Shown here: in pieces, positions 4,204 to 56,764 of the stretch
Position numbering within the stretch: the stretch's first letter is position 1
Layout: every line of letters starts with the position of its first letter
DNA from: Ginglymostoma cirratum
Lineage: Eukaryota
DNA length: 64,000 nt
Assembly (NCBI GenBank): GCA_024137785.1
Contig: JAHRHZ010000029.1
Location: 11,825,812 to 11,889,811 of the forward strand
Direction: 5' to 3'
Made by a program: the position numbers and the translations under genes
Notes under the pieces: generated by a model
Told to the model about the DNA's origin: nothing
Seen by the model: only the letters and a program-made list of their open reading frames with translations
Database searches by the model: none

Positions 4204-4337
4204 GAGTGATGCCAGTTCCAGACCAGCCATCTGTATCGGACAAAAATAGCTTGCTAAGCCCCATGCTGACGGCTTCCAATGGAGATGGCTCTGAGCCAGA
4301 GACCACTTCTGCTATTCTGGCTTCAGTCAAAGAACAG
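4204..4337 (+). CDS. CTNND2: Internal coding exon (exon 2 equivalent) of delta-catenin / catenin delta-2
   Basis: Pyrimidine tract, then catgcAG acceptor (AG 4202-4203) and CAG|GTATGT donor (GT 4338-4339). Phase 1 in, phase 0 out. Translation (G)[44 protein letters not shown] closely matches the recalled human N-terminus [46 protein letters not shown], with the same boundary after KEQ. Confidence 0.93.
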
Positions 4338-4817
4338 GTATGTACCTATGTTTAATCATGCTTACTTGGAGGAGGGGAAGGAGAACACTGAGAATTCCAA
4401 ATTCAAAAGAATGCTTTCTGAAGCAACAACTCTTAAAGTATATCTATTTTCTGGTACTTAACATGGTTAGAGTTGCCAACACTTCAGGATTGCCTGATAG
4501 TCTCCAGGAATTATGAATTAATCTTCAGGACGCTGCATTGAGCAACAAGGAGAAAAATCATAGCAGGATTATCTTTATGCTTCATTTTCTTAGAACAGAT
4601 TGGTTTATTACTTACCTTGTTTGAAAGTATTGCAGATGAGGGAAAAGGCTGCTTAATTTGGTTAAAAAGAACTCAGTGACAGTTTCCAATTGACATGGAA
4701 AGGCTGGAATCACAGGGATTATGGATGACCAATGACAGGCACTTTGGGTGATGGGACAGTTGGAGAAAGAAGGTCTCCCACAATACTCAACCAGAATTGG
4801 CAACACTAAATACTGTA

Positions 4818-9089: not shown

Positions 9090-9620
9090 TGAGACTGTAA
9101 GACGCAGGAGCAGAAGTCAGCCACAAAGCCCATCAATTGTACTTCAACATTCAATGAGATCATGACTGATCTGATAATCCTCAACTCCACTTGCATCTCT
9201 TTGCCCATGGTCCTGAATTCCCTGAGATAACAAGGTGTAGAGCTGGATGAACACAGCAGGCCAAGCAGCATCAGAGGAGCAGGAAGGCTAATGTTTCAGG
9301 CCTAGACCCTTCTTCAGAAAGGTTTCTGAAAGGGTCTAGGCCCGAAACGTCAGCCTTCCTGCTCCTCTGATGCTGCTTGGCCTGCTGTGTTCATCCAGCT
9401 CGACACCTTGTTAACTGAGATTCTCCAGCATCTGCAGTTCCTACTAGCCCTAAATTTCCTCACTGATTTAAAAATCTATCTATTTCAACTTTGAATATAG
9501 TTAACAATCCAGCCTCGATAGCTTTCTGCATTAAAGAATTACACAATTCACTATCCTCTGAGAGAAATTCTGTGCTAACTGGGCAATCACTTATTCTGAG
9601 ATTATGGTCTCTACTTCCAT
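9090..9620 (-). mobile_element. CR1 LINE 3' end interrupted by a Penelope palindrome
   Basis: Minus-strand ORF 9460-9966 ends LTIFKVEIDRFL (CR1 ORF2 C-terminus); typical CR1 3' UTR at 9090-9220. Confidence 0.7.
9224..9445. mobile_element. Head-to-head palindromic Penelope pLTR unit (family A)
   Basis: Arms ~9228-9320 and 9323-9413 are near-perfect reverse complements around cagaaa-gg-tttctg; degenerate TSD tggtcctgaattccct / tagccctaaatttcct. Confidence 0.88.
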
Positions 9621-10374: not shown

Positions 10375-11283
10375 AAATCCAGGAGGGGAGTGTGGACCGT
10401 GACTCCCTTGTCCGCTCCACACTCCCCTCCAGCCCCACCACATCCGGCACTTTTCCCTGCAACCGCAGGAGGTGCTACACCTGCCCCTACGCCTCCCCCG
10501 TCACCCCCATCCCAGGCCCCAAGAAGACTTTCCACATCAAGCAGATGTTTACCCGCACGTCTGCTAATGTGGTATACTGCATCCACTGTTCCAGATGTGG
10601 CCTCCTCTACATCGGGGAAACCAAGCGGAGGCTTGGGGACCGCTTTGCAGAACACCTACGCTTGGTTCGCACTAAACAACTGCACCTCCCAGTCACGAAC
10701 CATTTCACCTTCCCCTCCCACTTCTTAGACGACATGTCCATCCTGGGCCTCCTGCAGTGCCACAACGATGCCACCAGAAGATTGCAGGAACAGCACCTCA
10801 TATTTTGCTTGGGAACCCTGCAGCCCAATGGTATCAATGTGGACTTCACAAGCTTCAAAATCTCCCCTCCCCCAACCACATCCCAAAACCAGCTCAGCTT
10901 GTCCCTGCCTCCCTAACCTGTCCTTCCTCCCACCTATCCCCTCCTCCCATCTCAAGCCCCGCCCCCATCTCCTACCTACTAACCTCATCCCGCCCCCTTG
11001 ACCTGTCCGTCCTCCCTGGACTGACCTATCCCCTCCCTAACTCCCCATCTACACTCACCTTTACTGGCTCCATCCCCGCCTCTTTGACCTGTCTGTCTCA
11101 TCTCCACCTATCTTCTCCTCTATCCATCTTCTGTCCGCTTCTCCCTCTCTCCCTATTTATTTCAGAACCCCCTTCCCCTCCCCCATTTCTGAAGAAGTGT
11201 CTAGGCCTGAAACGTCAGCCTTCCTGCTCCTCTGATGCTGCTTGGCCTGCTGTGTTCATCCAGTTCTACACCTTGTCATATCA
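10375..11283 (+). mobile_element. 5'-truncated Penelope-like element (family A): GIY-YIG ORF, C-rich 3' region and pLTR with hammerhead motif
   Basis: ORF 10392-10916: GTFPCNRRRCYTC..SANVVYCIHCSRCGLLYIGETKRRLGDRFAEH..EQHLIF.LGTLQPNGIN. CTGAAGA at 11189-11195 and GAAACGTC at 11209-11216. Confidence 0.92.
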
Positions 11284-42787: not shown

Positions 42788-42952
42788 CACATGACCCCAG
42801 GTTATAGTCCAACAAGTTTATTTAAAATCTCAAGCTTTCAGAGCACTGCTCCTTCATCAGGTGACTTTTAAATAAACCCGTTGGACTATAACCTGGTGTC
42901 ATTTGACTTTTGATTTTGTCCACTCCAGTCCAACACTGGCATCTCCACATCA
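42788..42952. mobile_element. Palindromic Penelope-type pLTR unit (family C) with minus-strand hammerhead motif
   Basis: ccaggttatagtccaacaagtttatttaaaa (42797-42827) is inverted at 42866-42896; the minus strand reads CTGATGA-A-GGAGCAGTGCTCT-GAAA-GCTT. Confidence 0.75.
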
Positions 42953-47798: not shown

Positions 47799-48130
47799 AA
47801 CCACATTAGGGCCCCTCTTCAATCATGTTTTTACCTATTTTTCTAATCACACTGTTCAGAGGTATTATTGTACACTTCTGAATTAGGTGGTTCTTGAACC
47901 TGGGTCTCCTAGCTTGAAGGCAGGGACGCTACTACTGCACCACAAGAACCCCTTCAAGCATGTTTTCATGTAGTGCGGTCTAAATCATAACACTTGGCTG
48001 AGTTAAAAAAGCTTCTTCTCTGCTCTCCTCTTGCCTTTTTTAAAAGTGTTTGAAAGTTTTCATAAATAAATGTAACTGGTATTATTTCTTTACATATTAA
48101 TTTATTGTTCAAACCTAAAACTAGTTAAAT

Positions 48131-48612
48131 GTGGATTTCACAAGCTTCAAAATCTCCCCTCCCCCAACCGCATCCCAAAACCAGCCCAGCTCATCTCCGC
48201 CTCCCTAACCTGTCCTTCCTCTCACCTATCCCCTCCTCCTACCTCGAGCCCCACCCCCATCTCCTATCTACTAACCTCATCCCGCCCCCTTGACCTGACC
48301 GTCCTCCCTGGACTGACCTATCTCCTCCCTACCCCCCCACCTACACTCACCTTTACTGGCTCCATCCCCGCCTCTTCGACTTGTCTGCCTCCTCTCCACC
48401 TATCCTCTCCTCTATCCATCTTCTATCTGCCTCCCCCTCTCTACCTATTTATTTCAGAACCCTCTTCCCCTCCCCCATTTCTGATGAAGGGTCGAGGCCC
48501 GAAACGTCAAGCTTTCCTGCTCCTATGATGCTGCTTGGCCTGCTGTGTTCATCCAGCTCCACACCTTGTTATCTCAGATTCTCCAGCATCTGCAGTACCT
48601 ATTATCTCTGAT
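48131..48612 (+). mobile_element. 5'-truncated family A Penelope element with 11-bp TSD
   Basis: Closely parallels 10838-11283; actagttaaat at 48120-48130 and 48613-48623. Confidence 0.92.
48478..48511 (+). ncRNA. Minimal type I hammerhead ribozyme motif within a Penelope pLTR
   Basis: ttt-CTGATGA-a-GGGT(cgag)GCCC-GAAA-C-GTC-aag: complete core, 4-bp stem II, palindromic ACGT stem III; predicted cleavage after C48508. Confidence 0.75.
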
Positions 48613-49284
48613 ACTAGTTAAATATGTACCATTTAGTCATCTGAAAAAAGAAGACTTTGACATGTATAGATCCTGTCACAGCTTCAGCCAATGAAGGGCT
48701 TGAGGCTTAATCATTGTTTCATTATTGTTAAAACAAGATAGCCATTGGTACACAGCCATGAGACAAATAACTAGATAATGTATTTTAAGTGTTGGTTGAG
48801 GATTAGATATTAAGAAGGATTTCAAAGATATCCAGGAAACAAAAAGTATGTAAATTAACCATAGCAAAGACCTTTTCTTTGTTCTCCTGGCTGTGCGCTT
48901 TAATTTACTTGGATCTTGGGAAAGTACACACACTGTCATTTATATAGGGAGTGAGGGGTCATCTTCTAAATGTAATCTGAAACACAGAAGCCAAATCAAA
49001 ATATAAAGTTAAAAAATGGTAAATTACACCAAAATGTATCAGCAAGAACAAAGTTAAGAATAATAGCTGCTTTTCAATAGCTCAAGGAACTGAGGGAAGA
49101 GACTGGAGTGATAGAACTGGGGTAAATGAAAGGGAAGAGTGAATGTACAAGGTATTTTGTAGGGGGTAACAATTAATTAGCTACTTATGCTGACCATTGT
49201 TCATGACAATGAACACTGCATAAGTTTTGTGTTTATTAATCAGTGGTCCAACAGAGCGTCCACCAGTATGCTCACAGCAATTAC

Positions 49285-50120
49285 TTGCATTCATACAGTA
49301 CTTTACTGTAAATAAAATATCCTAAAATGATTCACAGAAGAGTTATAAATCGAAAACGCCCATGTAAGGCAATATTGCGCCGATGACCAAATGCCTGCTC
49401 CTATGATGCTGCTTGACCTGCTGTGCTCATCCAGCCCCATGCTTGTTAGCTCAATAAAAGACCTAAGTTTAAAGTGGCATCTTACAGGAGGAAAGTGAGG
49501 TGAAGAAATGGAAAGATATATGGTGGTGATCCCACAATTTAAGGACTCGGCAGCTGGTGGCCTACCACCATTGGTGCAGAAACTAAAATCACGGTCATTC
49601 AAGAGACCAGAATGAGACGGATGCAGATATCTCAGAGAGTTGTGGAATTGCAAGGGAATACAGAGGGAAGAATGGGCTGGGGGATTGAAGAACAAAGATG
49701 GGTATTTTAAAATCAAGGTGCTATTTATACCCTCTAGTCTATGGAGATTATGAACACAGGGGCAAAAATACACAAATAACTACGGGTGCTGGAAGTCTGA
49801 AATAAAAACAGAAGTGGAAAGAGAGGAGAGTTAACATTTTGGATCCAGAGCTGAAGAACATTCTGAAGTTGGGGCATTGAACTCAAAACGTTAGTTTGCT
49901 TTCTCTTTCTGGATGCTGCCAGGGCTGCTGAGTTTCTACAGCAATGTTTGTCAATGAATACAGGGTTGACTGGTGAGTGTAATTTTGTGAGAGGTCATTG
50001 GTAAGTAATAGTGTTTTTGATTATCACAAAATGAGTAATAGAATGGGGAGGCCTGCACAGGAGCATGTTAAATTCTGTTTCATAAAAAGGCATGAGTGAG
50101 GGTTTCAGTAGCAGAAAAGT
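49285..50120 (-). mobile_element. L2 LINE fragment with nested pLTR pieces (family A ~49394-49447; palindromic family B ~49762-49953)
   Basis: L2-type tail and body on the minus strand; the family B unit is flanked by atgaacacaggg (49750-49761) and atgaatacaggg (49954-49965). Confidence 0.6.
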
Positions 50121-56570: not shown

Positions 56571-56764
56571 AATAGCAAGAACTACAGATGCTGGAGTCAG
56601 CGATAACACGGTGTGGAGCTGGAGGAACATGGGAGGCCAGGCAGCATCAGAGGAGTAAGAAAGTTGACATTTCGGGTCAGGACCCTTCCTCGGAAATCTG
56701 AAGCCTGACCCGAAACGTCAACATTCCTGCTCCGCTGATGCTGCCTGGCCTGCTGTGTTTGTCT
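56571..56764. mobile_element. Palindromic family A pLTR unit with 13-bp TSD
   Basis: atttcaaagggga at 56558-56570 and 56765-56777; arms are inverted around ggaaatctgaag. Confidence 0.88.

Follow-up and report, generated by a model that had tools for sequence, protein, structure and literature searches.

If a mobile element carries a hammerhead ribozyme into an intron in the sense orientation, the ribozyme may either cut the host pre-mRNA or leave with the spliced intron. This question is raised by a motif at 48478-48511 in a 64,000-nt window (the whole stretch analysed) of Ginglymostoma cirratum DNA (GCA_024137785.1, contig JAHRHZ010000029.1:11,825,812-11,889,811, forward strand). An initial annotation had placed the motif in CTNND2 intron 2 and had proposed that three neighbouring copies could enable its co-transcriptional cleavage. 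The analyses reported here make it very probable that the motif is an intact-looking minimal hammerhead in a 482-bp Penelope end, which was inserted after the split from a relative, stays uncut and has no role in CTNND2.

The host gene was identified from a coding exon of CTNND2 (delta-catenin) at 4204-4337 (+), upstream of the host intron. It matches Chiloscyllium catenin delta-2 at 98%, and catenin delta-2 is the name of most of its 23 matches; the gene identity is taken from this match, the ESM Atlas being uninformative with the 44-aa exon. The host intron begins at 4338 and extends to the next CTNND2 exon, 256 kb downstream on the + strand and beyond the window, and the remaining exons, spread across 716 kb, are on the + strand too. 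The hammerhead is 44 kb past one exon and 212 kb short of the next and, since the exons on either side are on the + strand, it is intronic and sense to CTNND2, as annotated. The number of the intron is less secure: "intron 2" is a presumed number based on homology, and tblastn detected no upstream first CTNND2 exon within 130 kb upstream.

The letters at 48478-48511 form a minimal type I hammerhead motif on the + strand. The 5' strand of helix I (UUU, 48478-48480, also a hot spot for the starts of sister copies) is followed by the core CUGAUGA (48481-48487) and an unpaired A (48488) between positions 9 and 10.1, features described in PMC4209133. Next come helix II (48489-48500, GGGU/GCCC with the loop CGAG, the family majority being T at 48494), GAAA (48501-48504), the palindromic ACGU (48504-48507, ending in U16.1), C17 (48508) and the 3' strand of helix I (AAG, 48509-48511). 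The predicted cut site is between 48508 and 48509. Helix II consists of three G-C pairs and one U.G, with the G10.1-C11.1 pair present as G48489-C48500, and helix I has 3 bp (two A-U, one U.G), ended by a mismatch of C48512 with A48477. Helix III is possible only in a dimer, through the palindrome; the monomer has none. All core nucleotides, the 4-bp stem II and the self-complementary ACGT thus read as the initial annotation gave them, while helix I, although inside its coordinates, had gone undescribed.

The motif is not a chance occurrence, as the 34-mer hammerhead pattern has 19,431 matches in the genome and 0 when read backwards. The loose core pattern by itself gives 12 overlapping matches, at 5 sites, in the window; 7 of 100 shuffles reach this count, so that the pattern alone falls short of significance. 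A scan with hammerhead models, which the initial annotation had called for, returned no Rfam hammerhead match at E<=5; the window's 6 matches were weak and under the gathering threshold, and 5 of these were to miRNA models, on the palindromes. The features of a canonical, tertiary-stabilised hammerhead were likewise not found at 48478-48511, which is without loop 1, helix III or an Rfam hammerhead match.

The hammerhead belongs to a known kind, the Penelope minimal hammerheads (Cervera and de la Pena 2014). Like the published examples, it has the core boxes (CUGANGA...GAAA...UH), the unpaired 9/10.1 base, the G10.1-C11.1 pair and a palindrome at 15.2-16.2, is without helix III, and is located in a pLTR within a family of mostly solo truncated copies. 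Its helix I of 3 bp (one wobble) falls inside the 2-5 bp of the published examples, compared with 4-5 bp in Schistosoma and 2 in D. virilis, whereas its helix II has 4 bp compared with 7-8 in Schistosoma and 6 in D. virilis. According to PMC4209133, a single minimal hammerhead gives no cleavage and dimers and trimers give low cleavage, with which the annotated statement that such hammerheads are thought to work as dimers agrees; the same source reports thousands of solo copies in vertebrates. A literature search found nothing joining hammerhead ribozymes, elasmobranchs and Penelope, and nothing on Neptune Penelope-like hammerheads with truncated copies.

The element itself is a 5'-truncated Neptune-type Penelope-like element of which the 3' end only is present (48131-48612, +). 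It opens with the last codons and stop of the RT/GIY-YIG ORF (..VDFTSFKISPPPTASQNQPSSSPPP*, 48131-48208, +), recognised from the ORF of sister copies and from Pfam PF01541 in one of them, and continues with a pyrimidine-rich 3' UTR/pLTR (48209-48477, +). The hammerhead stands 273 nt after the ORF stop and before the Penelope "tail" (48577-48612, +), which was delimited from a histogram of 3' ends and from PMC11167929. Sister copies have two 3' endpoints, ~48573-76 or ~48608-12, consistent with an optional tail, and this copy kept the long end. In sister copy L051, a single ORF has a YIDD motif and, at its C terminus, a GIY-YIG domain (Pfam PF01541, E=2e-5, above cut-off); no RT family was matched in the Pfam search of this copy, and the YIDD motif was read directly. 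The Zn-finger linker CNRRKCYTC, before the endonuclease in sister copies, fits CX2-5CxxC, a linker common to Neptune and Nematis elements (PMC8557442). By this shared linker and the ORF features, the element is provisionally placed as a Neptune-type EN+ Penelope-like element. Additional Penelope traits are 5' truncation, inverted pLTRs, the optional 30-40 bp tail and a target-site duplication; inverted 5' copies are frequent in the family.

The target-site duplication is the 11-bp ACTAGTTAAAT, present at 48120-48130 (+) and again at 48613-48623 (+); the last 3 bases (AAT) of the left copy match the element too, as microhomology. In a related organism, single contigs (two runs from one study) join 48119 directly to 48613 and keep one duplication copy, with flanks ~95-96% alike (39 differing letters in ~877). 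This empty site confirms the target duplication, and with it the annotated TSD-flanked Penelope pLTR, and indicates that the insertion is lineage-specific. Two further features were noted near the hammerhead. A pyrimidine tract at 48445-48457, ending TTATTTCAG, is splice-acceptor-like, is located 23 nt before the hammerhead core in sense to CTNND2, and could be either the end of the element's own 5' UTR intron or a cryptic acceptor. Additionally, a short family fragment without a hammerhead is found 0.8 kb downstream of the element, at 49394-49453.

The genome contains 52,713 exact intact hammerhead motifs (12 per Mb), which fall into three types: AAGT (35,365 copies, with a helix I of 4 bp in those that retain the upstream A), AAGC (13,057 copies, 3-bp helix I, including the copy at 48478-48511) and AGC (4,291 copies, 2-bp helix I). 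In comparison, coelacanth has about 4,000 copies and Xenopus about 9,000 in a published survey of minimal hammerheads, against at least 52,713 intact copies in this Ginglymostoma family; the number is high but not a record, since axolotl is reported to carry 126,247 hammerhead motifs (PMC7229834). Within 1.19 Mb of contiguous sequence, divergence from the subfamily's own majority is 6.1% for AGC (n=46) and 2.7% for each of AAGT and AAGC (n=26 each; p about 0.005), and the 2-bp helix I subfamily is older than the other two. A stepwise lengthening of helix I (2, 3, 4 bp) with subfamily age holds only in part, as the 3-bp and 4-bp subfamilies are not orderable (p=0.85).

Frames of 760-800 aa or more without a stop survive in many sister copies (L084, L093, L095, L098, L099, L102 and others), so the family was active recently. 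Twenty loci were selected for their long open frames: in 6 of them a frame of 762-794 aa is free of stops, and in 18 AAGT is on the ORF strand; the most numerous subfamily, with the 4-bp helix I, also carries the long open frames. Neither these 20 loci nor 7 chosen by exact-match spacing yielded a full-length element carrying a direct 5' pLTR; some stretches of the loci read N.

Other Penelope families in the DNA analysed from this genome retain the architecture although the letters differ: helix I is AGUU/AACU, UCAC/GUGA or CAGUC/GACUG, the palindrome is ACGU or AGCU, and helix II has 4-6 bp, so that helices I, II and III covary among the families. The window contains one hammerhead of a different family, at 42832-42860 (-); it is antisense to CTNND2, its palindrome is AGCU and its helix II is not the same. 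Long copies of the present family have 1/290 changes in the core and 59/1586 downstream (p=8e-4). A first version of the core-conservation test was skewed by the ends of the alignments. Without the recurrent sites, the effect is left at p=0.009 among the 30 long copies and falls to p=0.14 in the larger set, and core conservation was rejected as evidence for the 48478-48511 locus. Intact core, helix covariation and lower core variation nevertheless count against the main reading of an uncut motif; together they argue that the hammerhead has a function at some stage of the element's cycle, and it is probably under selection at the family level.

Individual copies, by contrast with the family, are under no selection for the motif: each base of the CpG in ACGU is altered in 17 of 98 copies, as neutral decay predicts, and the motif is intact in 23 of the 74 copies that cover it. 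At 48481-48572 (excluding 48505-16), loop base 48494 is the one position where the copy in CTNND2 departs from the majority of its subfamily. Its perfect appearance would be explained by the youth of the copy and by source elements that kept the motif, and not by selection at the locus. Since the insertion is lineage-specific and the family has over 50,000 copies, there is no feature that sets this copy or CTNND2 apart.

Cleavage would be expected to leave a trace in the family. If cut RNAs were copied, the 5' ends of copies would cluster at 48509. The 5' ends were counted with four patterns that require foreign sequence ahead of a 12-base window, whose anchors admit somewhat different subfamilies and in which indels add some false matches. 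The raw matches were 12,957 (48473-84), 2,682 (48489-500), 1,817 (48505-16) and 2,090 (48521-32), or about 36,600, 9,600, 6,500 and 5,900, respectively, after correction for base composition. The cut-site window, 48505-16, thus has no excess over its neighbours. Within it, 4 of 30 loci start at 48509, and by eye 9-12 of the 100 matches listed do so, similar to adjacent positions. There is no cleavage footprint among the family copies. Strand bias was similarly absent from the CTNND2 gene body (660 kb, 22 kb masked), which has 37 sense and 39 antisense family copies, 9 sense and 10 antisense strict motifs, and 2 sense and 5 antisense motifs with helix I of at least 4 bp (p=0.45), in a comparison of low power in which inverted pairs are not independent.

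The preferred reading, that of an uncut passenger, accommodates these results through an ordinary life history. Target-primed reverse transcription, starting from the tail and ending prematurely, would have made the copy at 48131-48612. Its hammerhead would then be transcribed with the CTNND2 intron, unable to form helix III alone and with a helix I of 3 bp; the RNA is predicted to misfold with its flanks, would find no competent partner within 125 kb, and would leave the pre-mRNA along with the spliced intron.

Of the alternatives, protein-assisted cleavage in trans fares best, although it is very unlikely. Where intact family members are expressed, the Penelope protein would attach to this copy's tail in the CTNND2 pre-mRNA and bring the copy, alone or together with element RNA, into a cutting form, and few transcripts would be cut. 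The copy retains its tail, many sister copies have the long open frames given above (762-794 aa in 6 of the 20 selected loci), and the hammerhead of an anole Penelope-like element is reported to be protein-assisted (PMC11167929). In that work, the anole Poseidon hammerhead does not cut without the element's protein, which probably assists by binding near the start site of reverse transcription, and the hammerhead is dispensable for insertion in vitro. The likeness to the Anolis carolinensis element PAc (PMC11167929) extends to a hammerhead in the pLTR upstream of an optional 30-40 nt tail, an AT-rich target and copies made from uncut RNA; PAc differs in belonging to the Poseidon clade and in an ORF that starts in the hammerhead, whereas the Ginglymostoma family has a Neptune-type Zn-finger linker. 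However, the copy 5' ends carry no cutting footprint, CTNND2 has no strand bias, the 20 loci are devoid of full-length elements that have a direct 5' pLTR, and even in the anole no RNA-seq reads are reported to begin or end at the cut site (PMC11167929).

A broader form of this idea, in which tens of thousands of intact intronic Penelope hammerheads in the shark are latent switches, silent alone and cut when the element protein acts in trans, is decidedly improbable. If it were true, a surge of Penelope expression in brain or germline would leave host pre-mRNAs, that of CTNND2 among them, nicked at many sites simultaneously. The single locus matters little, being a young copy in a family of more than 50,000; the family is a large natural data set on the purpose of the Penelope hammerhead.

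Cleavage by pairs of hammerheads was what the initial annotation had in mind, and its partners were evaluated individually. Cutting at 48508 requires an intact core and helix II from the partner, and so the named copies fail. The first (11189-11216, +), 37 kb from the hammerhead and of the older subfamily, has intact core letters and a broken helix II (G.U closing pair, U-C mismatch) with 1 bp left. The second (9326-9351, +) is missing two core bases and is half of a head-to-head palindrome at 9222-9446, and the third (56698-56719, +) is missing about six bases of the core and the 5' arm of helix II and is half of another at 56581-56759; both are predicted to be locked with their inverted twins in hairpins of -102 and -53 kcal/mol, respectively. 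All three are present where they had been annotated, but none is intact, and co-transcriptional cleavage with them, for which modelled dimer energies are also unfavourable, is not supported. As a separate observation, the head-to-head palindromic Penelope stubs at 9222-9446, 56581-56759 and 42791-42903 are predicted to form long RNA hairpins in CTNND2 pre-mRNA and are possible editing or dsRNA substrates.

In a repaired version of the pairing model, a double hammerhead would form between two sense copies within one nascent intron and cut co-transcriptionally, the cut strand giving only ACGU-H and helix I's 3' arm and the partner giving the core and helix II. The core is intact, the ACGU is palindromic, and a second intact sense copy exists in the same CTNND2 intron, but this nearest family copy, the sole competent partner, is 125 kb downstream. 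The modelled active dimer with it, held by 4 + 3 + 4 bp, has -5.0 kcal/mol, compared with -3.5 for the homodimer, +8.6 with the copy at 11189 and -24 to -29 for the free monomers; active homodimers of four other CTNND2 hammerhead families are modelled at -19 to -29 kcal/mol. Nearest-neighbour energies penalise hammerhead junctions and were calculated without a known active dimer as positive control, and the ranking alone was used. In the monomer, the U48480-A48509 pair has a predicted probability of at most 0.0002 in all 5 contexts folded. Helix II is predicted at no more than 0.003 in the 3 contexts with native flanks that span at least 121 nt and at 0.997 in a 47-nt RNA starting at 48477; the last CCCU tracts of 48209-48477 are predicted to pair with the hammerhead AAGGG, hiding helix II in short constructs.

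Amphibian non-LTR retrozymes, for which a Penelope origin has been proposed, offer a precedent for such pairing, being type I with a palindromic helix III and in need of a dimer (PMC7229834; bioRxiv 10.64898/2026.07.22.740005). The preprint includes one chondrichthyan. Dimers raise cleavage in the amphibian tandem repeats, and it is only there that efficient dimer cleavage is described (PMC7229834). Retrozymes occur in tandem arrays, make loop 1-loop 2 contacts and give rise to circular RNAs in abundance, whereas 48131-48612 is a solo insertion without loop 1; tandem units with complete hammerheads, the mark of a non-LTR retrozyme, were not found here, the nearest intact sense copy being 125 kb off. 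With its three original partners defective and the free monomers far more stable in the model, cleavage by a pair of hammerheads is highly improbable.

Exaptation as a regulatory ribozyme of CTNND2 is barely credible: the sense orientation in the long intron of a neuronal gene recalls the CPEB3 ribozyme (PMC10919898) and amniote intronic hammerheads (PMC7229834), but those are conserved among species, and that of CPEB3 cuts fast as a monomer, whereas the shark hammerhead is lineage-specific, high-copy and unable to fold alone, has an empty orthologous site in the related organism, differs by one loop base from its subfamily majority in the region compared, lies 212 kb from the next exon and is one of at least 9 strict sense motifs in CTNND2.

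The 5' ends of copies nevertheless have one marked peak, at the front edge of helix I (equivalent to 48474-48481). In the 1.19 Mb, 40 of 124 copies, about a third and from all three subfamilies, start at 48470-81, and 14 of the 40 adjoin an inverted twin. The pile-up is ~5.6-fold over the cut-site window (~36,600 copies genome-wide by estimate), and a second Penelope family has unrelated flanks directly ahead of the helix I strand in about 15 copies. The peak may mark the start site of the element's RNA, a tentative reading that is rather doubtful at present. CCA(48477)TTTC is initiator-like. Inr-like motifs have been described in pLTRs (PMC3846280; PMC2377424), although D. virilis Penelope is reported to start upstream of an intron whose end falls at helix I (PMC4209133; PMC2377424). 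Possibly, the peak arises instead from stalling of reverse transcriptase at the C-rich tract, or else from joining by AT-rich microhomology; the anole enzyme is reported to cut ATT (PMC11167929). A narrow literature search found no earlier report of the pile-up. If the peak is the RNA start, then the hammerhead is transcribed first and the templates are uncut RNAs.

Sense minimal hammerheads of other families, with a helix I of 5-10 bp, were also observed in CTNND2 introns beyond the window (extended coordinates 108922, 381131 and 403571). Their modelled dimers are far stabler, and they would be better candidates for activity than the motif at 48478-48511.
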